Shown here: positions 5,071-48,667 of the stretch, piece by piece
Layout of the letters: each line of letters starts with the position of its first letter
Numbering within the stretch: the stretch's first letter is position 1
Origin: an uncultured Candidatus Peribacteria bacterium
GTDB lineage: Bacteria > Patescibacteriota > Gracilibacteria > Peribacterales > Peribacteraceae
Assembly (NCBI GenBank): GCA_964541635.1
Contig: CAZIQM010000001.1
Location: 5,852 to 69,851, forward strand
Length of the DNA stretch: 64,000 bases
Reading direction: 5' to 3'
Program-made: the position numbers and the translations under genes
Notes under the pieces: generated by a model
Database searches by the model: none
What the model was told of the DNA's origin: nothing
Seen by the model: the letters and a program-made list of their open reading frames with translations, nothing else

Positions 5071-7104
5071 TCAAGCGGACCGCTCCCCCTCGACGCCGAT
5101 CAGCTTCTCGGCGGTGCGCCGCACGCGCAGGATGAACGCCGGATCGAAGAGCTGAGGGAAGCGCATGTCCGGCAGGCCGCTCTGGCGCAAACCGAACAGC
5201 TCGCCGGGACCGCGCAGTTGCAGGTCGATCTCCGCGAGGTGGAATCCGGAGTGGTGTTCTTCCATCGCCTTCAGGCGGGGCGAACGCGCCTGTTCGGGCG
5301 TGGTGGTGAAGAGGAAGCAGTGGCTCTGGTGGTCGCCGCGCCCGACGCGCCCGCGGAACTGGTGAAGCTGCGAGAGGCCGAACCGCTCGGCTCCTTCGAT
5401 GACGATGATGGTCGCGTTCGGCACGTCGATGCCGACTTCGATGACCGACGTCGACACCAGGATGTCGCTCTCCTTCGCCTTGAACGCCTTCATGATCACG
5501 TCCTTCTCGTCGCCCGGCATGCGCCCGTGCAGCAGCGCGATGCGCCGGTGCGGGAACGCCTCGGCGAGGCGCGCGTGCTCCTGCTGGACGTTCTTCACCT
5601 CGCGGATATCCTCCGCTTCCGACTCGGCGATGAGCGGGCAGATGACGAACACTTGGCGGCCACCGTCGATTTCCTTGTCGATGAACAGCTCGATCGTCCG
5701 CCTGTCCTTGGGCGACACCACCTTGGTGTGGATGTCCTTGCGGTTCTTCGGCTTCGTCTGGAGCACGGACAGGTCGTGGTCGCCGTACGCCGTGAGCGCG
5801 AGCGTCCGCGGGATCGGCGTGGCGGTCATCGAGAGGAAATGCGGCGAACCTTTGTCCTTCAGCCGCGCGCGTTGCGCGACGCCGAACCGGTGCTGCTCGT
5901 CGACCACCACGAGGAGCAAGTTGGAAAAACGCACGGAATCTTCGATGAGCGCGTGCGTGCCGATGACGACGTCGATCGTTCCGGCGGCGAGCGATTGGCG
6001 CACCGCGTCCTTCTCGCCCGCCGTCATGGAACCCGTGAGGAGCTGGACGTTGGGCAACCGCCGCGAGCGGCCGTCCGCGGCGACGGCGTTGTGCCACGTG
6101 AGGAGCAATTTCGAGATCGAGAGCACGTGCTGCCTGGCCAAGACCTCCGTCGGGACCATGAGCGCAACCTGGCCGCCGTGCGCGATGGCGTTCGCCATCA
6201 CCGCCACGGCCACGAGCGTTTTGCCCGAGCCGACGTCGCCTTCGAGCAGGCGCGACATCGGGCGGTCCTTCTCCATGTCTTTCAATATTTCGTAGATCGC
6301 GATCTTCTGGTCGTCCGTGGGCGTGAACTGCAGCGACGAGAAGAAACTCTTGATGAGCTCCGGGTCCATCGGCGTCTTCAAACGGTCCTGCGCCGCGGAC
6401 TGCCACGCTTTGCGGCGCTCGAGGGCGTCTTGCTGCACGCCGAGCATTTCCTCGAACGCCATGCGTTCGCGCGCCCGTTCCACCGCGGCGGGATCGTCGG
6501 GAAAATGCAGCGCCTCGAAGGTCTCGCTCCTGCTGAGGAGGTTTTCCTCCTTCAGCACGGCTTCCGGCAGCGTTTCGGGTATGTCCGTGATGGCGGGGCG
6601 GACGAGCGTCATTTTCTCGCGCAGCCACTTCGTGTTGATGATGTCGTGCTGCGGGTAGATCGGCACGAGCCTCCCGGCGTGGACGAGGGGCTTGCTTCCC
6701 GCGACCTCGAACTGCGGGCTCGACATCTGCAACCGGACGCCCACCTCCTTCAACTTCCCCGTGAGCACGACTTCGCTGCCGTCCGGCAGCATGCGTTTCA
6801 CGTGCGGCTGGTTGAACCACGTGACCTCGCACGTATCGCCGGCCGTGTCGGTGAAGGTCGTCTTCAGCAAATTCTTGCCGCCGCGCAGCCGCGTGAACTT
6901 CAATTCGGCGATGGTGCCGCGCACCGTGACCTTCTCGCCGATGGCGCACTGCGCGAGCGTGCGGACCTGGCTCAGGTCTTCGTGTCCGCGCGGCAGGTAC
7001 TTCAACAAATCGAGCACCGTGCGGATGCCCATGCCTTCGAGCGCGTCGATATGGGCCTGCGTGGTGCGCAGGAGCGCCGACGTGAGACGGCTCGATCCTT
7101 TCAC
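5071..7104 (-). CDS. recG: ATP-dependent DNA helicase RecG
   Basis: Wedge/OB domain, then helicase motifs GDVGSGKT, VVDEQHRFGV, SMTATPIPRT and QLHQFRGRVGRG. GTG start. Confidence 0.93.
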   Translation of the reverse strand: MKGSSRLTSALLRTTQAHIDALEGMGIRTVLDLLKYLPRGHEDLSQVRTLAQCAIGEKVTVRGTIAELKFTRLRGGKNLLKTTFTDTAGDTCEVTWFNQPHVKRMLPDGSEVVLTGKLKEVGVRLQMSSPQFEVAGSKPLVHAGRLVPIYPQHDIINTKWLREKMTLVRPAITDIPETLPEAVLKEENLLSRSETFEALHFPDDPAAVERARERMAFEEMLGVQQDALERRKAWQSAAQDRLKTPMDPELIKSFFSSLQFTPTDDQKIAIYEILKDMEKDRPMSRLLEGDVGSGKTLVAVAVMANAIAHGGQVALMVPTEVLARQHVLSISKLLLTWHNAVAADGRSRRLPNVQLLTGSMTAGEKDAVRQSLAAGTIDVVIGTHALIEDSVRFSNLLLVVVDEQHRFGVAQRARLKDKGSPHFLSMTATPIPRTLALTAYGDHDLSVLQTKPKNRKDIHTKVVSPKDRRTIELFIDKEIDGGRQVFVICPLIAESEAEDIREVKNVQQEHARLAEAFPHRRIALLHGRMPGDEKDVIMKAFKAKESDILVSTSVIEVGIDVPNATIIVIEGAERFGLSQLHQFRGRVGRGDHQSHCFLFTTTPEQARSPRLKAMEEHHSGFHLAEIDLQLRGPGELFGLRQSGLPDMRFPQLFDPAFILRVRRTAEKLIGVEGERSA

Positions 7105-7636: not shown

Positions 7637-8026
7637 ATGACGGACATGAAGAGCCTCTATGACGAGCACAAAGACCTGGGCGAGGATGCCCAGAAACAAG
7701 CGGGCAAAGCCATCGCCGGCACCATGCGGCCCGAGATCGAGGCCTTCCTGAACGCCCTGCTGGGCCTCCTGGAAAAAAAGGAGATCGACTCCGGGAACCC
7801 GAAATCGTTCCTCAACGCCGCCGTGTACGACGCGTTGGGCGAAACCGACAAGGACAAAATCGACCTGGCGCTCATCAACCTGGGGCACATGCTGGAGGAC
7901 GTCATCGAATTCCGCCTCTCGAAGCTGACGCCCGATTCCTCGCCCCAGCTCGAAACGATGATCGCGGCGTTGCTCCAAACGAAAACGCGGATCGAGGAGA
8001 AGGTGGGAGACGTGTTCAAGTTCTGA
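7637..8026 (+). CDS. hypothetical protein (129 aa)
   Basis: In-frame ATG at 7637, preceded by TACACT 8 nt upstream. Helical, protein-like composition. Confidence 0.65.
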   Translation: MTDMKSLYDEHKDLGEDAQKQAGKAIAGTMRPEIEAFLNALLGLLEKKEIDSGNPKSFLNAAVYDALGETDKDKIDLALINLGHMLEDVIEFRLSKLTPDSSPQLETMIAALLQTKTRIEEKVGDVFKF

Positions 8027-8037
8027 CCACGACAAAA

Positions 8038-8062
8038 GCGCATCCGAACGTTTCGAATGCGC
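8038..8062 (+). terminator. hairpin downstream of the 7637-8026 CDS
   Basis: GCGCAT-CCGAA-cgt-TTCGA-ATGCGC imperfect stem with a weak U tract. Confidence 0.4.
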
Positions 8063-8091
8063 CTTCGTACATTTTGGCGGGCGGGAATGCC

Positions 8092-8487
8092 CTACTCTTT
8101 TTCACGCATCTGAAGGATAAATTCAGGCCCTACTCCGGTAGGCATAACTCCGGGCAAATCCAGAGTATCCGTGAACCATGTATCTGCCGCGAGGACGTCG
8201 CGATCACCCGTTGCAAGATGGTCAACGATTAGACCTTCTTTATGCACTGTCTGGGCAAAGTCGAACGCGAGATACACCGCAAGAGGTGGATTTCCATCGT
8301 CCTCTACGGGCTTCTCGTTTTCGATCCAAAAATGCATGCTCGGACCATCCGAATAATTCTCGAAGGTGAGACTATCTCTTTTCATTCCAAGCTCTTGGCA
8401 GAGCGTCAGGACCCACGAGAGGTCCTTCACGGAAGGAAATGTGACGACAATTCTTGGATCCTTCAGACTCACATAGAAACGTTTCAT
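8092..8487 (-). CDS. hypothetical protein in a low-GC segment (131 aa)
   Basis: Start MKRFYVSL, preceded by AAGGGGA 8 nt upstream, one of very few SD-like sites in the window. GC is clearly below that of its neighbours. Confidence 0.6.
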   Translation of the reverse strand: MKRFYVSLKDPRIVVTFPSVKDLSWVLTLCQELGMKRDSLTFENYSDGPSMHFWIENEKPVEDDGNPPLAVYLAFDFAQTVHKEGLIVDHLATGDRDVLAADTWFTDTLDLPGVMPTGVGPEFILQMREKE

Positions 8488-8597
8488 GACGTTTCCCCTT
8501 TTTATAAGGCTGTTCTTGCACGGTCCCGCCCGTGGTGTAAATGTACTATGAATATAATAAAACATTAATATATATTGTCAATGTATGGATTTTGGCT

Positions 8598-8700
8598 TAA
8601 GTTAGCTGTCGCGCATCGATCCAACGGATCCGATCGTCGTCCTTCCCCCACGTCAGTCCTCGGTACGATTTTGCTGCGGCAAAATCACTCGGCCTGACAA
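8598..8700 (-). pseudogene. degenerate duplicate of the miaA 3' end (last ~30 codons)
   Basis: The minus-strand translation ...FAAAKSYRGLTWGKDDDRIRWIDARQLT* resembles the intact miaA C-terminus ...IAAKTRQYAKRQMTWWKDDERIKWIDARQM*. The DNA similarity is visible too (gcatcgatcca..gatccg..atcgtcgtccttcc). Confidence 0.7.
8652..8700. repeat. left inverted repeat of the GIY-YIG cassette
   Basis: gtcagtcctcggtacg...gctgcgg...cactcggcctgacaa is the reverse complement of blocks at 9113-9162 (15 + 7 + 16 nt identical). Confidence 0.8.
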
Positions 8701-8718
8701 GCCCGCCGTTCTTAGGGG

Positions 8719-9162
8719 ATGAAGTACGCGATATGTTGTTTTGTCATGCCGAGTGTTCGGCGAGTCGCACGCGAGTCGAATGTACCGAGGCATGACAAAT
8801 CGCATGCTTATTTCGTGCAGCAATATTTCACCTACCTCCTTCGTTTTAAGAACGGCTCGTACTACGTGGGCGTGACGAACGATATCGAGCGCCGAATGGA
8901 CGAACATCGAACTGTTCTCAATCCCGGATCGTACGTGGAACAACAAGGCGACTTCGAACTCGTCTACGTCGAGTCTTCTCCGTACATCCTCAACGCTATC
9001 GCGAGAGAAAAACAAATAAAGAATTGGAGTCGCGCAAAGAAAGATGCTCTCGTCGAGGGGGATGAGAACGCGCTTTTTTATCTCGCGAAGAAAGATTTCT
9101 CTTCGAAAAAGGTTGTCAGGCCGAGTGCCCCGAGCCGCAGCGAGGGGCGTACCGAGGACTGA
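8719..9162 (+). CDS. GIY-YIG domain nuclease (UPF0213/YhbQ-like)
   Basis: YFTYLLRFKNGSYYVGVTNDIERRMDEH...REKQIKNWSRAKK matches the GIY-YIG core (Y..Y..G.T.d..rR..eH...E..iK.W.r.kK). Confidence 0.8.
   Translation: MKYAICCFVMPSVRRVARESNVPRHDKSHAYFVQQYFTYLLRFKNGSYYVGVTNDIERRMDEHRTVLNPGSYVEQQGDFELVYVESSPYILNAIAREKQIKNWSRAKKDALVEGDENALFYLAKKDFSSKKVVRPSAPSRSEGRTED
9113..9162. repeat. right inverted repeat of the GIY-YIG cassette
   Basis: ttgtcaggccgagtg...ccgcagc...cgtaccgaggactgac. It encodes the C-terminus of the GIY-YIG ORF and ends 2 nt before the miaA stop codon. Confidence 0.8.
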
Positions 9163-9164
9163 CA

Positions 9165-10100
9165 TCACATCTGCCTCGCATCGATCCATTTGATCCGCTC
9201 ATCGTCCTTCCACCAGGTCATCTGGCGCTTCGCATATTGGCGGGTTTTCGCGGCGATGACCTCGATGAGCTGCTCCTTGTTCTGCTCGTCTGACCTCAGC
9301 CACTGCGCGATCTCGCGGTAGCCGTGGCTCTTGAAGCCGGGATCATGTTCCGTGTAGCCGCGCTCCAACAATGATTCGACTTCGCGGATCCATCCCCCGT
9401 TCACGAGCTCGGGCGTGCGCGCGTCGATGCGCTTGGTCAGCTCATCACGCGGCCATTCGAGCCCGAGCATCAAGGCGTGGAAATCCGGCGGCACGGTTTT
9501 CTTCAGAGTCGACGGCGGGAACCCCGTGAGCCGGTAGAGCTCCACCGCGCGGACGACGTACTGCTTGTTGGCTTTGTCGAAACTCTTCGCGGTTTCGGGA
9601 TCCACCCTTGAGAGCTCGTCGAAGAGCGCCCACCCGTCGTCTTCGTCGTACAGCTTCTCCAATTCTTTCCGCAGTTCGGGGTCGGCTTCGGGCAACGGAC
9701 GCAGGCCGTCGACGACCGACGAGATGTAGAGCATCGATCCCCCGACGAGCACGGGCACGTTCCCGCGCGCGTGGATTTCCTTGATGACGCTGTTCGCGTG
9801 TTCTTGGTACCACGCGATCGTGACAGGCTCTTTCGGATCGAGCACCGAGAATAGATGGTGCGGGACTCTCCCCTTTTCCTCCTCGGTGATTTTCGCGGTG
9901 CCGATGTCCATGCCCGTGTAGAGCTGGCGCGAGTCGGCGTTCACCACCTCGGCGCACTCCCCCATCCGTTCGCAAAGACGCAACGAGAAACCCGTTTTTC
10001 CGCTGCACGTAGGCCCGAGCACGACGATGACCGGTTTCGGGTTCTGCGCCAGATGCTCGTCGACGAGCGGCTGCCAATCGTTGGGACCCAGGAGATGCAC
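9165..10100 (-). CDS. miaA: tRNA dimethylallyltransferase
   Basis: P-loop GPTCSGKTGFS, then DSRQLYTGMDIGTAK and a conserved C-terminal helix. The GTG start at 10100 is the first plausible start before the P-loop; the upstream part of the 518-aa track ORF is GC noise. Confidence 0.9.
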   Translation of the reverse strand: MHLLGPNDWQPLVDEHLAQNPKPVIVVLGPTCSGKTGFSLRLCERMGECAEVVNADSRQLYTGMDIGTAKITEEEKGRVPHHLFSVLDPKEPVTIAWYQEHANSVIKEIHARGNVPVLVGGSMLYISSVVDGLRPLPEADPELRKELEKLYDEDDGWALFDELSRVDPETAKSFDKANKQYVVRAVELYRLTGFPPSTLKKTVPPDFHALMLGLEWPRDELTKRIDARTPELVNGGWIREVESLLERGYTEHDPGFKSHGYREIAQWLRSDEQNKEQLIEVIAAKTRQYAKRQMTWWKDDERIKWIDARQM

Positions 10101-42442: not shown

Positions 42443-43792
42443 ATGCGCCTCTCCGCCGCACTCCTTCCCCTGCTCCTCGTTCCCGCCGTCGCTTTCGCGG
42501 ATTCCGGCGCGACGGTGATCGACGAATCGTCCTCGCAGGTGCTGGCGCCGGATAACACGGATACGGCCATCCCCGAAGGAACGGCGAGCGTCACGATCGA
42601 GCAGGTGTCGCTCGTCCCGGGCGTCCAGGGATCCTGGCTCTTGTCCTTCCCCGACCACACGCAACGCACCGGCACCGTCGGCGCCGAGGTGCTCACCGAC
42701 ATCCCGAGCGGCAATTACGTCCTCTACGCCAACCTGCCGAACGGCACGCTCTCGACCATCCGCATCTACAAGAACGGCGTGCTCGATAAATTCTTCGAGC
42801 GCCAGCAAACGCCGTTCGCCCTGTACCCCGGCGACGACATCCGCATCGCGATCCACTACCGCCTCGACAAAACAGGCACGGTGTCCGTGCAGAGCGACCC
42901 CACCGGCACGCACTTCGTGCTCTACGGGCCCGATGAAGCCGTGTACGACGGCACGACGCCCGCGACGTACGAGGATTTGCCCGAAGGACAGTACAAGGTG
43001 CTCTACGACGCCTTCGCCGAAGGATGCATCACCCCCGCGCCGAAAGCCGGGCAATTGGTGAAGGATTCGCGCGTGTCGTTCGACGTGAAGTTCGACTGCC
43101 CCGCGGCGAACAAAGCGCGCGAGCGCCAGGCGAAGGACTCGAAGAAGTACCTCACGATCGTCGTGGGCGGCAAGGACGTGCAGCTCCAGGACGTGCAGCA
43201 GAGCGATTGGTTCTCGACGTACGTCTTCGAAGCGGCCAAACGCGACATCCTCTCGGGCTACAAGGACGCCGAGGGCAACCCGACGGGAGCGTTCGGCCCC
43301 GGCAACAGCGTCACGGTCGCGGAACTCGGCAAAATCGCGCACCGGATGGCGGGCATCGCCGAAGACGCGTTCAAGACCGCGCAGCCGAAGAACCCCGCGG
43401 GGGCCGGACAATGGTTCTCGCCGTTCATCGCCAGCGCGGAAAACCGCGGATGGATCATCTACGCCGACGGGACGATCGACCCGACGCGCCCCGCCACCCG
43501 CGGCGAAGTGCTCGTGACGCTCATGCAGGCCTTCGACGTCGGCCTGCGGTGGCAGAAAGGCAACGTGTTCACGGACGTTCCCGTGACGTATCCGTACGCC
43601 GCGGCCATCGAAACCGCCGCCGCCGACAAGGTCGTCTCTGGCCGCACGGACGCCGACGGCAAGCCCACGGGCGCCTTCGACCCCGACGCGTCGATCACGC
43701 GCGCGGAAATCGCCAAGATCATCACGACGCTCCTCGACACGTACAAATCGCCGACCGCCCTGCGCAACGCGGCGAACAAGAAGCAGGATTAA
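42443..43792 (+). CDS. secreted protein with PEGA-like N-terminal domains and three C-terminal SLH domains
   Basis: Signal peptide. SLH repeats DVQQSDWFSTYV...VTVAELGKIAHRM, QWFSPFIASAENRGWI...ATRGEVLVTL and FTDVPVTYPYAAAIETAAADKVVSG...ITRAEIAKII. Confidence 0.8.
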   Translation: MRLSAALLPLLLVPAVAFADSGATVIDESSSQVLAPDNTDTAIPEGTASVTIEQVSLVPGVQGSWLLSFPDHTQRTGTVGAEVLTDIPSGNYVLYANLPNGTLSTIRIYKNGVLDKFFERQQTPFALYPGDDIRIAIHYRLDKTGTVSVQSDPTGTHFVLYGPDEAVYDGTTPATYEDLPEGQYKVLYDAFAEGCITPAPKAGQLVKDSRVSFDVKFDCPAANKARERQAKDSKKYLTIVVGGKDVQLQDVQQSDWFSTYVFEAAKRDILSGYKDAEGNPTGAFGPGNSVTVAELGKIAHRMAGIAEDAFKTAQPKNPAGAGQWFSPFIASAENRGWIIYADGTIDPTRPATRGEVLVTLMQAFDVGLRWQKGNVFTDVPVTYPYAAAIETAAADKVVSGRTDADGKPTGAFDPDASITRAEIAKIITTLLDTYKSPTALRNAANKKQD

Positions 43793-43830
43793 GCGGCGAG
43801 CCCCTCGGCACGCTCGGGGTGACAGAAGGA

Positions 43831-45111
43831 TTACTGTTGCAAAATTTTGCCCGCCAACGACGTCACGTCGCCCGCGCCCATGGTGACCACCACGTCATGG
43901 GGTTTCAGGCCTTCCGCAAGCCATTGTAAGGTTCCCTCCAGCCCGCCGCCGTCGACGACCGTCGTCGCGCTGCCGGCCGCCACGTCGGCGATGAAACGGA
44001 GGAAATCCACTTTGGCCGAATCGGATTCGCCGCGGGCGCCGTACACGTTCGGCATCACCACGAGATCGACGCCGCGGAACGCGGTGAGGAATTCGTCGTA
44101 CAGTTTCAGCGTGCGGTCGTGCGTGTGCGGCTGGAACACGACGACGATGCGGCGGCCGGGATACCCTTCCTTGATTCCCTGGAGCGACCCCGCGATCTCC
44201 GCGGGATGGTGCGCGTAGTCGTCGATGACCGTCACGCCGTCCGAGTCACGGGTGCCCTTCACTTCCATGCGCCGCCACGTGCCGCGGAATCCCGCGAGCG
44301 AGCGGAGTGCCGACTCCTCGGCGATGCCGAAGTGTTTCGCGGTCGCGAGGGCCAACCGGGCGTTCTGCCGCATGATGTCGCCCGGTACGCCGACCACGGG
44401 CAGGTCCGCCGCGTCGGCGTTGATGCCCGGATGCCCGCTGCGCGCGACGACCTCTTTGCACGTGTCGTCCGACGCGTGGAGCACCACGGGATTGCCTTCG
44501 GGTTCCAAACGGAAGAAATCGACGAACGCCTGCCGGTAGTCCTCGAGCGATCCGTAGGCGTCGAAGTGGTCGCCGTCGACGGTGGTGAGCACCGCGACGT
44601 CCGGCGAAAGGTAATGGAACGATTTCCGGTACTCGCACGCTTCGACGATGAAGATCTCGGACGCGCCTTTCCGCCAGTTGCGCCCCGCGAGGTCGGGCGA
44701 TTTCGTGCCGACCACGACCGAGGGGTCTTTGCCCGCGTCGATGAACGCCTTCGCGATCATGGCGGTCGTCGTCGATTTGCCGTGCGTGCCGCACACGGCG
44801 ATCACGGTGTAGTTCTCGCTCAGCTCGCCGAGGGCGCGGAAGTACGACTGCTGCTCGATGCCGAGATCGGTCGCTTTCCTGCGCTCCGGCGCGTCCGGCG
44901 GGACGGCTTCCGAATAGACGAAGAGATCGACATCGCCCGTCACGTGCGAGCCGTCCTGGTCGAGGAAGACCTCGATGCCCTGGCCGCGGAGGTCGTCGAG
45001 CAAGGCGCTGTCCGATTTATCGCTGCCGCGCACGACGTGCCCGTTGGCGCGCTGCAACGCCGCGTAGGCGCTGAGCCCGATGCCGCCGATGCCGCTGCAG
45101 TAGATCACCAT
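43831..45111 (-). CDS. murC: UDP-N-acetylmuramate--L-alanine ligase
   Basis: GIGGIGLSAYA...VRGSD N-terminus and the Mur ligase P-loop GTHGKSTTTAM. Confidence 0.88.
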   Translation of the reverse strand: MVIYCSGIGGIGLSAYAALQRANGHVVRGSDKSDSALLDDLRGQGIEVFLDQDGSHVTGDVDLFVYSEAVPPDAPERRKATDLGIEQQSYFRALGELSENYTVIAVCGTHGKSTTTAMIAKAFIDAGKDPSVVVGTKSPDLAGRNWRKGASEIFIVEACEYRKSFHYLSPDVAVLTTVDGDHFDAYGSLEDYRQAFVDFFRLEPEGNPVVLHASDDTCKEVVARSGHPGINADAADLPVVGVPGDIMRQNARLALATAKHFGIAEESALRSLAGFRGTWRRMEVKGTRDSDGVTVIDDYAHHPAEIAGSLQGIKEGYPGRRIVVVFQPHTHDRTLKLYDEFLTAFRGVDLVVMPNVYGARGESDSAKVDFLRFIADVAAGSATTVVDGGGLEGTLQWLAEGLKPHDVVVTMGAGDVTSLAGKILQQ

Positions 45112-46131: not shown

Positions 46132-46818
46132 ATGTTCATGGATCTTGGCGCCGGCCCCGGTGAAAACGCCTCGCCCGACGAAGGCGGCGGCAGCGGCGGC
46201 GAAACCCTCAGCGAAGAAGCCCGCGCCCGGTTCGCCGGCGCGGCGGCGGCGCAGCAGCAAGCCAGGAAAGACGAACGGAAAGCTAAGAAGCGCGACGACG
46301 GCGTCGCCCAGATGATCATGGCGTTCCTCACGGACACGCAGCGCACGCACCTCGCGACGCTCATTTCGCGGCTCGTCGCGCTCGACTGCCCCTCGCCGTT
46401 CCTCCTCGCGATCCTCTCGCTCGTGAACGCCGACTGCACGAAGGCCGTCGACGAGTACTTGGCGGAACAAGGCTCGCCCGCGGATCCCGACACGACCGCC
46501 CTCGCCGCGCTCGGCGAAACGAACCTGCCCGCAGAAGCCAACGCGACCCTCGAGAAGTGGATCCTCTCCATGGAGCTCGTCCTCGCCACGAACCCGGTGC
46601 AGATCCTCGCCGCCCTCATCGTGGAGGAAGGCAACATCGACGGCACGGTGCTGCAGCTCACGACCTTCGTCCTCGACGAATTCATGAAATCGCACGGCAA
46701 GCCCGTGCAGTTCGCGGCGCTGCAAAGCGCGACCATCTCGATCCTGCAGGCGGTGTTCGAGGATTACATGCACCACGCCCCGCTGCCGGAAGCCGCGAAA
46801 AACGAGGACGACGAGTGA
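46132..46818 (+). CDS. hypothetical protein (228 aa), acidic
   Basis: Protein-like ORF. A TAGGAT box lies 8 nt upstream of the ATG. Confidence 0.65.
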   Translation: MFMDLGAGPGENASPDEGGGSGGETLSEEARARFAGAAAAQQQARKDERKAKKRDDGVAQMIMAFLTDTQRTHLATLISRLVALDCPSPFLLAILSLVNADCTKAVDEYLAEQGSPADPDTTALAALGETNLPAEANATLEKWILSMELVLATNPVQILAALIVEEGNIDGTVLQLTTFVLDEFMKSHGKPVQFAALQSATISILQAVFEDYMHHAPLPEAAKNEDDE

Positions 46819-46849
46819 TCCCCTTCGGCAGGCTCAGGGTGACAGCGGA

Positions 46850-48667
46850 TTAATCGCGCTTGAGCACGCTCAGGAACGCTTCCTGCGTGATGGTCACTTT
46901 GCCCATCTGCTTCATGCGCTTTTTGCCTTTCTTCTGCTTATCGAGGAGCTTGTTCTTGCGCGAGACGTCGCCGCCGTAGAGGTAGCCGGTCACGTCCTTG
47001 CGCATGGCGCCGATCGTTTCGCGGGCGACGACCTTGCCGCCGATCGCCGCTTGGATCGCGATTTCGAACTGCGCCTTCGGCAATACCTCTTTTAGGCGTT
47101 TGCACACGATAGCTCCCACGCTGTGTGCTTCGCTGCGGTGCACGATCGTCGAGAGCGCTTCGGCCGGTTCGCCCGCGAGCAGGATCTGCAATTTCACCAA
47201 ATCGCCGCTGTGGTACCCGAGCGGTTCGTAGCTCATGGAGCCGTACCCTTCGGTCGAACTCTTCAGGCGATCGAAGAAATCGAGGACGATCGACTGGAGC
47301 GGGACGTCGAACTTCATGAGCACGCGCTGCGCGTCGAGGTACTCCAACGCCTTCTGCGTGCCGCGTCGTTCCTGCAGCATCTGCATCACGATGCCGACGT
47401 CGACGTCGCGGCACACGACTTCGAGCGCCACCCACGGCTCGCGGACCTGTTCGATGATCACGGGATCCGGAAAGTCCGCCGGGTTGCTGATGCGCGCGGT
47501 GTCGGGCTCGTCGACCTTGAGCAGCGAGCTGCGCACGTACTCGGCCGGGTTCTTGGCGGCCATCTTCACCTCGTAGAGCACGCTCGGCGCGGTGACGATG
47601 AGATCGCAATTATGTTCGCGTTCCAGGCGTTCTTGGACGATTTCGAGGTGCAGGAGCCCGAGGAACCCGCAGCGGAACCCGTTGCCGAGGGCGGCGTTCT
47701 GTTCCGGTTCGGTGGAGAGCGCGCTGTCGTTGAGCGTCAGTTTCTCGAGCGCGTCGCGCAGGTCCGGGTACTTGTCGGCTTCGGTCGGGTACAACCCCGC
47801 GAACACCATCGGCTGCACGAGTTTGTAGCCCGGCAAGAGTTTCAGGTCCGGCGCCGACGCCATCGTGTCGCCCACGCGGACCAGGCGGACGTCCTTCATC
47901 CCTGAGACGACGTACCCGATCTGGCCGAGGACCATTTTGTCGTCCGGCACGTAGTGCGGCGAGAAATGGCCGACTTCCTGGACGTCGAACTGCGTTTTTT
48001 GGCCGAGGAGATGCACCTTCATCCCCTTCTTCAACTCACCTTCGATCACGCGGACGTACGCGATGGCGCCGCGGTAGCCGTCCATGAACGCGTCGAAAAT
48101 GAGCGCCCGGGTGCCGCCGCCCGCCGGCTGGACCGTCGGCGCCGGGATGCGCGCCGCGACCGCGTCGAGCACCTGGTCGACGTTCGTGCCGTCCTTGGCC
48201 GAAATCCTGAGGATATCCTCCTTTGCGCACCCGATGAGCTTCACCACTTCCTCGCTCACGCGCTCGGGATCGGCGGCGGGCAGGTCGATTTTGTTCAGCA
48301 CGGGGATGATCGTCAGGTCGTGCTCCATCGCCATCATGAGCACCGCGATCGTCTGGGCTTGGATGCCCTGCGACGCGTCGACGAGGAGGATAGCGCCTTC
48401 GCACGCGGCGAGACTGCGCGACACTTCGTAGCGGAAGTCGGTATGGCCCGGCGTATCGATGAGGTTGTACTCCACGCCCTTCCATTCCATGCGGACCGGC
48501 GTGAGCTTGATTGTGATCCCCCGCTCGCGCTCCAAATCGAGCATGTCGAGCGTCTGGCTCTTCATTTCGCGCTTCTGCAACGTGCCCGTCAGTTCGATCA
48601 TGCGGTCCGACAACGTCGATTTGCCGTGGTCGATGTGCGCGATGATGCAGAAGTTGCGGATATCCAT
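46850..48667 (-). CDS. lepA: translation elongation factor 4 (LepA)
   Basis: IRNFCIIAHIDHGKSTL, DTPGH, NKID, and the LepA-specific C-terminal domain. Confidence 0.96.
   Translation of the reverse strand: MDIRNFCIIAHIDHGKSTLSDRMIELTGTLQKREMKSQTLDMLDLERERGITIKLTPVRMEWKGVEYNLIDTPGHTDFRYEVSRSLAACEGAILLVDASQGIQAQTIAVLMMAMEHDLTIIPVLNKIDLPAADPERVSEEVVKLIGCAKEDILRISAKDGTNVDQVLDAVAARIPAPTVQPAGGGTRALIFDAFMDGYRGAIAYVRVIEGELKKGMKVHLLGQKTQFDVQEVGHFSPHYVPDDKMVLGQIGYVVSGMKDVRLVRVGDTMASAPDLKLLPGYKLVQPMVFAGLYPTEADKYPDLRDALEKLTLNDSALSTEPEQNAALGNGFRCGFLGLLHLEIVQERLEREHNCDLIVTAPSVLYEVKMAAKNPAEYVRSSLLKVDEPDTARISNPADFPDPVIIEQVREPWVALEVVCRDVDVGIVMQMLQERRGTQKALEYLDAQRVLMKFDVPLQSIVLDFFDRLKSSTEGYGSMSYEPLGYHSGDLVKLQILLAGEPAEALSTIVHRSEAHSVGAIVCKRLKEVLPKAQFEIAIQAAIGGKVVARETIGAMRKDVTGYLYGGDVSRKNKLLDKQKKGKKRMKQMGKVTITQEAFLSVLKRD

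Follow-up and report, generated by a model that had tools for sequence, protein, structure and literature searches.

A putatively mobile GIY-YIG nuclease cassette with hairpin repeats at the 3′ end of miaA in Peribacteria

We analysed a stretch of 64,000 nt from the Candidatus Peribacteria (Peregrinibacteria) contig CAZIQM010000001.1 (GCA_964541635.1, positions 5,852-69,851 of the forward strand; hereafter the window) and found a 565-bp cassette (8656-9220) which appears to have been inserted into the 3′ end of the housekeeping gene miaA. The cassette is made up of two palindromic modules (m1 and m2), a small GIY-YIG nuclease gene, a third module (m3) and a new 56-nt miaA end. Comparison with about 20 related miaA loci from relatives named Peribacteria (these and other loci are coded L001-L043) indicated that the insert brought its own miaA 3′ end and that the displaced native end survives next to it. 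In the explanation that we prefer, with a probability of about 0.5, a horizontally exchanged unit of nuclease and structured repeats was inserted by recombination anchored in miaA homology; the part of it that concerns insertion and transfer we regard as highly probable. The features of the region are given below in window coordinates, and the modules were scored with the covariance model R1, run with filters off over the 64 kb.

8092-8597, minus strand: older resident of the same variable slot, an open reading frame (ORF) of 131 aa without assigned function (ORF proper 8092-8487, plus a promoter-like site)
8598-8655, minus strand: displaced native miaA 3′ end, the remnant TWGKDDDRIRWIDARQLT with its stop codon, contiguous with the original downstream DNA
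8651-8700, minus strand: module m1, in inverse orientation (R1 61.1 bits, E 5e-16)
8741-8798, plus strand: module m2, just upstream of the GIY-YIG start (R1 63 bits; perfect 11-bp outer stem)
8815-9162, plus strand: minimal GIY-YIG nuclease gene, 115 aa, probable GTG start (PF01541, E 5e-16; PDB 1zg2, E 2e-9)
9113-9164, plus strand: module m3 (R1 70.1 bits)
9165-9220, minus strand: replacement last 18 codons and stop of the functional miaA, probably imported; direct-repeat partner of the remnant
9165-10100, minus strand: functional miaA, 311 aa (TIGR00174, E 9e-77; protein identical to P0121, a protein of an NCBI metagenome-assembled genome)

An earlier note on this DNA had described a diverged copy of the miaA C-terminus beyond m1. 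We found that 8606-8655 and 9171-9220 were 82% identical over 50 nt, and that their local alignment score of 32 lay well beyond the background of 2000 dinucleotide shuffles (8.1 ± 1.5; z 15.8). The miaA-derived part was confined to the remnant at 8598-8655, and the adjoining 'AAAKSYRGL' stretch, which had been counted as part of the copy, was m1 read in frame. Among the relatives with an empty site, L032 is the closest; its miaA is intact, and the gene end is followed at once by an AT-rich promoter and an ORF of 132 aa. The remnant together with 8480-8597 (8480-8655 in all) was colinear with this intact end and promoter, and the 131-aa ORF (8092-8487) was homologous to the 132-aa ORF (35% identical, E 1e-17). 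Two further pairs of loci gave the same picture: the L017 remnant was joined to the stop of a convergent 'GDVFKF' gene in precisely the way seen at L011, a compact empty site, and the decayed remnant of L001 ran on into the sequence that lies 3′ of miaA in the empty site L013. These comparisons identify the remnant as the original miaA end and 8656-9220 as the insert, which upholds the note's proposal of an insertion into the end of miaA with a replacement 3′ end.

Both copies of the end were then set against that of L032. In the window the remnant was 86% identical to it, its closest match, and the functional end 82%, and the corresponding values for L006 were 86% and 79%; in L006, the clade consensus can still be read in frame from the remnant, which differs by 21% from the functional end. 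The remnants being nearer to L032 than the functional ends suggests that the functional end was imported with the insert, and that the repeat is no target-site duplication. A short target-site duplication was not found at the cassette, whose flanking repeat measures 56 nt and is 82% identical. In L011, the convergent stops of miaA and 'GDVFKF' overlap (6985-6995, cttTAAaac), and at a site of this type any insertion must duplicate sequence to keep both genes intact.

The 131-aa ORF next to the remnant is preceded by a promoter-like site close to consensus (TTGACA-16-TATTAT, 8581-8554; 11/12 in the promoter scan). Its GC content is low, and it shares just 35% identity with the L032 counterpart although the miaA proteins are 88% identical; it seems to be a rapidly evolving occupant of the miaA slot. 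The cargo ORFs of the slot, this one included, gave no useful match in Pfam or PADLOC.

When the orthologous miaA loci were aligned, the site was found to be polymorphic, and empty sites of the kind that the note had hoped for were recovered. The arrangement was not uniform among the relatives; empty, inverted and decayed sites all occurred.

Intact cassette: the window; L001-L005 and L007; L006; L043
Pseudogene (TGG to TAG): L010
Footprint of two half modules: L008
Footprint of a solo m1 with a 17-nt miaA vestige: L025
Footprint with an unrelated ORF of helix-turn-helix (HTH)-like type between a decayed m3 and a partial m1: L017
Empty site: L009, L011, L013, L031, L032, L033, L034

The similarities of the cassettes conflicted with those of miaA. 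The cassettes of L006 and L010 were 84.6% identical and the last 405 nt of miaA 73.8%, whereas between the window and L006 the cassettes were 75.2% and the miaA genes 85.7% identical; the synonymous divergence (dS) between L006 and L010 was 0.47 for the GIY-YIG gene and saturated for miaA. This conflict points to horizontal exchange of the cassette among Peribacteria lineages. Furthermore, the cassette lies on one side of the remnant of another insert, hairpin X, in L006 and on the other side in L010 and L043, so that the miaA end must have received two insertions or more. The L006 cassette is inverted relative to miaA, either through recombination between m1 and m3 or through re-insertion. 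Among 5.8 billion proteins there were five close homologues of the nuclease; the three with enough context were encoded at miaA, one beside an rnc-like gene and one on a contig too short for its locus to be placed.

The nuclease was characterized next. The ORF at 8719-9162 (147 aa) matched PF01541 with 59.1 bits (cut-off 22.6, E 5e-16), and its GC content of 0.48-0.52, against about 0.60-0.63 in miaA, confirmed the note's description of a single low-GC GIY-YIG ORF. Since the proteins of the relatives begin with 'MQQYFTY' at an ATG that corresponds to GTG 8815 in the window, the gene most likely starts at this GTG, extends to 9162 and encodes 115 aa. A candidate promoter for it, TTCTTA-17-TATGTT (about 8710-8738), was not reported by the promoter scan and is not claimed. 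The catalytic residues Y7, Y17, G19, R27, H31 and E65 were invariant in an alignment of 40 sequences including the window protein, and aligned with 1zg2. The ratio of nonsynonymous to synonymous divergence of the gene was 0.08-0.17; the gene is under purifying selection and is kept functional.

The only PDB matches of the nuclease were the UPF0213 proteins BH0048 (1zg2, E 2e-9) and EF2693 (1ywl, E 0.011), and its homologues were proteins of 85-120 aa named 'GIY-YIG nuclease family protein'. It is a stand-alone domain with neither a DNA-binding nor an auxiliary domain, and its C-terminal 16 aa are translated from m3. TIGR01453 gave 17.3 bits against a cut-off of 56, over residues 39-68 of the 147-aa ORF only. 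This score, far under the cut-off, and the lack of room for a DNA-binding domain place the protein outside the classical homing endonuclease family, and it is a minimal member of the UPF0213/prokaryotic Slx1-like GIY-YIG proteins, one that may still work like a homing endonuclease. The structures 1zg2 and 1ywl have been classed as bacterial Slx1-family members, a minimal GIY-YIG variant that is typically without auxiliary domains, and such Slx1-like proteins have been regarded as minimal nucleases of repair type whose inheritance is mostly vertical (Dunin-Horkawicz et al. 2006, PMC1564403). The note had named a grouping with YhbQ-type housekeeping proteins at conserved loci as an outcome that would speak against mobility; the type is indeed UPF0213/Slx1-like, and the gene sits in a polymorphic and apparently mobile cassette. 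To our knowledge, the UPF0213/Slx1-like nucleases of bacteria are very widespread and have solved structures, with no established role.

The palindromic sequences around the gene were likewise examined in the window. We found that m1 and m3 were inverted copies of one module of about 50 nt, and that m2 was a third copy. The inverted repeats that the note had seen around the ORF were exact, with arms of 16 nt (8652-8667/9148-9163) and 15 nt (8686-8700/9113-9127) that were both 100% complementary, and the 16-nt arm motif had 3 matches in 64 kb against 0.10 expected. Where the note saw a pair, however, there were three copies, m2 at 8741-8798 having been overlooked; this module sits within the N-terminal extension of the long ORF 8719-9162 and is kept in L006, L010 and L043. 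The outer end of m1 has TGAC in common with the remnant junction. At the other side, m3 covers the final 16 codons of the GIY-YIG gene together with the stop of that gene and directly adjoins the miaA stop, m3 ending at 9164 and the miaA stop lying at 9165-9167, in keeping with the note's placement of the right repeat. R1 recovered m1-m3 only, with 61-70 bits (next best match, 13.9 bits), and no second copy of the cassette or the long module was present elsewhere in the 64 kb, so that the further copies which the note had thought worth seeking did not appear; our statements on copy number refer to the 64-kb window as a part of the genome. In the loci of the relatives, about 150 kb altogether, no match to the long module was found outside the cassette or its miaA-slot vestiges. 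At L025, an m1-like module stands alone at the miaA locus.

Twenty aligned modules shared a 5′ core (TGTCA..CCGAGTG) and a 3′ core (GTACCGAGG), both of them invariant; the stems varied. Compensating changes were seen in the outer stem (T-A, G-C or C-G at one pair, and G-C or A-T at the next), and the inner stem was wholly different among copies yet always paired. In total, 92.8% of the cells paired, against 21-51% in slid controls, and two-sided changes occurred in 43 cells against 14.5 in shuffles, with none of 500 shuffles reaching the observed value. An asymmetric internal loop (5′ GAGUG, 3′ YGUACCGA) was conserved and may form tandem G.A pairs beside the outer stem. When metagenomes were scanned for the pattern, the module turned up on 11 further contigs, mostly as convincing copies, with L024 and L026 looking spurious; these copies were intergenic, at gene 3′ ends and often arranged as inverted doublets. 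The m1 and m3 arms were identical within one genome and different between genomes. Collectively, these data argue that the modules belong to a covarying hairpin repeat family which is also found without the gene, rather than being element-specific ends. No match was found in Rfam (both strands of 8000-9400, E ≤ 10), and the module pattern had none in IMG/VR. A K-turn reading of the internal loop is not claimed, as the register needs G.U pairs, or else a C-G pair lying between bulge and G.A pairs. An analogy with integron attC sites was also set aside, no integrase being present and the conserved ends being different.

Other hairpins in the window resemble a wider palindrome family. Short hairpins at 43799-43824 and 46816-46844 (gtcaccc[c/t]gagc..ccga[g/a]ggg), whose nearest counterpart is an L035 repeat, each lie exactly between the convergent stop codons of a gene pair (42443-43792 with 43831-45111, and 46132-46818 with 46850-48667), and may represent a short form of the repeat family. 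In L035 (2810-3230), the region 3′ of a 54%-identical GIY-YIG gene contains a tandem duplication of about 235 bp with several palindromes of the gtcaccctgagcttgtcgaaggg type in each unit. In L041 (575-640), 3′ of the GIY-YIG gene, one arm of the inverse module is expanded to four tandem gcctcggtcct copies, after which the module continues.

We then asked how closely gene and module are associated. A 64%-identical gene in L041, bordered on each side by the same long module, lies 3′ of a gene that ends in a double-stranded RNA-binding domain (RNase III-like), which indicates that gene and modules travel together between loci. Short modules with the same core flank the 41-48%-identical genes of L039 and L040: four of them (GTCATGCCGAGCGGAGTCGAGGCAT) surround the gene in L039, whose protein is 48% identical, and an inverted pair lies beside the gene in L040 (GC 0.69), the only two in 20 kb. 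The orientations were m1(-), m2(+) and m3(+) in the window and (+)...(-) for the flanks in L041, L040 and L039. Furthermore, 32 of 120 homologues had termini resembling translated palindromes (DPSLRSG, LRCAQDD, VILSEAKDL, RPSAPS). The link between gene and module thus holds for a subset of the nuclease family and is not universal. A wider conjecture, which we consider doubtful, is that many UPF0213 (YhbQ/Slx1-like) nucleases are dedicated enzymes of a widespread palindromic repeat family, with which they would form a jointly selfish unit. The repeat core is GTCAnnC(C/T)GAG...CGA(G/A)GnnTGAC, with a potential tandem G.A motif. The unit may be a GIY-YIG counterpart of RAYT-REP or a hairpin-homing nuclease; it would pass from locus to locus and from genome to genome, and would in Peribacteria have come to rest at the miaA 3′ end. 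Our literature search returned nothing relevant on GIY-YIG with YhbQ, REP, miniature inverted-repeat transposable elements (MITEs) or hairpins, the Candidate Phyla Radiation (CPR) or UPF0213.

The explanation that we prefer, a horizontally exchanged cassette inserted by miaA-anchored recombination, can be put as follows. Recombination would be anchored in miaA homology, with the miaA body or end as the left arm, and the right junction would fall inside the 3′ end of the recipient's miaA, where the window and L017 show TGAC microhomology; recombinants would survive selection only if miaA stayed intact. After the duplication, the two miaA 3′ copies could serve as portable homology arms, through which ordinary homologous recombination would move the unit into relatives. 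Eukaryotic Slx1 is a structure-specific nuclease, and the flanking hairpins are on that ground the most economical candidate substrate. The nuclease, if structure-specific like Slx1, would act on its own hairpin or cruciform modules, and breaks at the modules would favour exchange, inversion (as in L006) and deletion to footprints (as in L025 and L008). We put forward this action on the modules tentatively, as somewhat improbable.

Several observations weigh against this explanation. Few independent events are proven, and the window, L017 and L001 might descend from one ancestral insertion. The argument for an imported end turns on differences of 2-4 nt in 57 nt, and sliding-window identity along miaA gave no clear breakpoint between donor and recipient. 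As to both cleavage and substrate, the nuclease step is something that we purely infer. A GIY-YIG gene was not detectable on the short metagenome contigs that carry the module, and 14 IMG/VR loci with 40-48%-identical genes had no module within 250 nt (10 further away), though these are weak controls because their GC differs. Inserts without a nuclease also occupy the site: in L034 and L043, hairpin X (about 45 nt) lies between a new miaA end and a 51-nt old end; L001 has, in order, a block with a 110-aa ORF, a short remnant, the GIY-YIG cassette and a further decayed remnant; and in L033 an HTH-like ORF is followed by a decayed vestige of the miaA end. The remnants begin about 72, 56, 51 and ≤24 nt before the stop, and such variable lengths speak against a single precise mechanism.

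Since inserts without a nuclease also duplicate the miaA end, the duplication is no evidence of nuclease-driven homing, and the hot spot does not depend on this nuclease. Across the clade, the conserved miaA 3′ end appears to be a recurrent insertion site at which each insertion leaves the earlier 3′ end as a remnant. In the window and L017, TGAC is common to the module end and miaA ATGACC at the junction. The variable and partly illegitimate right junction fits miaA-anchored recombination and is a poor fit for an integrase or a fixed staggered cut. The gene tables of five relatives listed no recombinase or integrase gene in the cassette or in about 5 kb around it.

Some further features of the slot were recorded. 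Hairpin X (..ccggcgtagc..gccgcag..) occurs in L034 (4982-5076), L043 (809-896), L010 (3795-3865), L006 (1033-1102) and L008 (1774-1812); in L010 and L006 its duplication is about 27 nt long and looks like the result of a deletion between GGTGGA repeats. The slot ORFs of L017 (4233-4679, minus strand) and L033 (1478-1942, minus strand) are homologous (148 and 154 aa, 34% identical, E 6e-28) and have an HTH-like 'SQFSRV..G...PSP' motif; that of L017 lies between the decayed m3 and the partial m1, as if it had replaced the GIY-YIG gene inside the module frame. A second hairpin family (gcgcatccgaa-nnnn-ttcgaatgcgc), with a shared terminator-type look, lies 3′ of small slot ORFs in the window (8037-8063), L001 (4455-4490 and 5390-5425), L031 (about 5465-5495) and L032 (about 2308-2340).

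The main rival reading, which we think unlikely, has the same insertion history but takes the nuclease gene as passive cargo, a YhbQ/Slx1-like accessory gene of repair or housekeeping type carried in a recombination hot spot. The modules would then be RNA-level elements and may act as a 5′ stem-loop, a 3′ stabiliser or terminator, or protein-binding hairpins between convergent genes, and the inserts may arise by homology-facilitated illegitimate recombination after DNA uptake, with only miaA-restoring events selected. A UPF0213 protein without a DNA-binding domain would suit such a role, as would the sense orientation of m2 and m3 at the 5′ and 3′ ends of the gene and the position of modules and short hairpins at gene 3′ ends and between convergent genes. 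The same duplication made by the nuclease-free hairpin X, the short or decayed vestiges left by the blocks with the HTH-like and 110-aa ORFs, the varying junctions with their TGAC microhomology in the window and L017, and the 14 related IMG/VR genes with no adjacent module are in line with it as well. However, the module core follows the gene across loci (miaA and rnc-like) and across hosts of 38-70% GC, all three long modules of the 64 kb are at the nuclease gene, the m1 and m3 arms undergo concerted evolution though m1 is antisense, and the divergence of the cassette conflicts with that of its host.

The note had favoured intronless homing. On such a reading, a classical free-standing endonuclease would cut the uninterrupted miaA 3′ end of genomes lacking the cassette, repair from an allele with the cassette would copy it in and the diverged end would protect the carrier. 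The fact that relatives differ in having or lacking the cassette at one conserved site, its horizontal transfer, its repeated landing at the miaA end in different contexts, the split target with a diverged functional end and the strong purifying selection on the nuclease are all compatible with homing. We nevertheless judge it distinctly improbable. The protein has 115 aa without C-terminal DNA-binding modules, scores far under the TIGR01453 cut-off and groups with UPF0213/Slx1-like proteins (PMC1564403); a 64%-identical copy lies beside another gene in L041, carriers cannot be told consistently from non-carriers by their functional miaA ends, and nuclease-free insertions produce the same duplication.

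The note's other suggestion, a tiny transposon with terminal inverted repeats (TIRs) in which m1 and m3 would be the ends and the GIY-YIG enzyme the transposase, is not supported and is weakly refuted, being very improbable: the perfect 15-16-nt inverted arms (a trait shared with TIR transposons and MITEs), the inverted cassette in L006, the solo and half-module footprints in L025 and L008 and the related copy at L041 would agree with it, but neither the 64 kb nor the about 150 kb from relatives hold another cassette or long module, the placeable close homologues are at miaA (three) or beside an rnc-like gene (one), the flanks of 56 nt are 82% identical with one copy apparently imported and no short target-site duplication, and the three modules, in place of two ends, are copies of a hairpin repeat that also occurs without a nearby gene (L025).

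If the preferred explanation is true, the flanking hairpin modules provide a testable substrate hypothesis for UPF0213/Slx1-like nucleases, and the modules themselves are a new covarying structured repeat, absent from Rfam, which is open to sequence searches and to protein-binding tests. Streamlined CPR genomes have few classical mobile elements, and the cassette would show that genes move in them as sub-kilobase single-gene units. Such cassettes would be anchored in the 3′ end of a housekeeping gene, each with a dated remnant, so that the locus records the order of insertion.

The cassette approaches several known kinds, namely free-standing nuclease genes, REP-associated genes and 3′-end-targeting inserts, and is of a kind for which we found no description among GIY-YIG nucleases. 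UPF0213 proteins (BH0048, 1zg2; EF2693, 1ywl; and the E. coli YhbQ type) share the domain, the size and the catalytic residues of the nuclease; they are mostly vertical (PMC1564403), whereas this subfamily appears as an accessory, horizontally moving and repeat-flanked cassette. The seg and mob homing genes of T-even phages are likewise stand-alone nuclease genes without intron or intein, site-polymorphic and horizontally transferred, and they adjoin a conserved host gene that has a different sequence in carriers. Seg and I-TevI enzymes, however, join an N-terminal GIY-YIG domain through a linker to C-terminal DNA-binding modules (NUMOD, HTH, Zn finger), which are absent from the minimal 115-aa UPF0213/Slx1-like domain; moreover, structured palindromes flank the gene here, and the host 3′ end is present twice, an outcome that simple co-conversion would not give. 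Integrative elements that target the 3′ ends of tRNA, tmRNA and some protein genes restore their target with a 3′-end copy of their own, leave the old end as a far-side direct repeat and stack in successive insertions, as at the miaA slot; unlike these, the cassette has no integrase within it or in about 5 kb, the inserts measure only 0.1-0.6 kb and the junctions vary without a fixed core. In REP/RAYT (REPIN) systems, a single-copy nuclease-type gene is flanked by palindromic repeats, some of them inverted, and the repeat also occurs elsewhere as singlets and inverted doublets, as does the module. RAYTs are Y1 HUH transposases of the IS200/IS605 type, whereas the enzyme of the cassette is of the GIY-YIG type; the long module has 0 other copies in the 64 kb, and it is the whole cassette unit that appears to be mobile.

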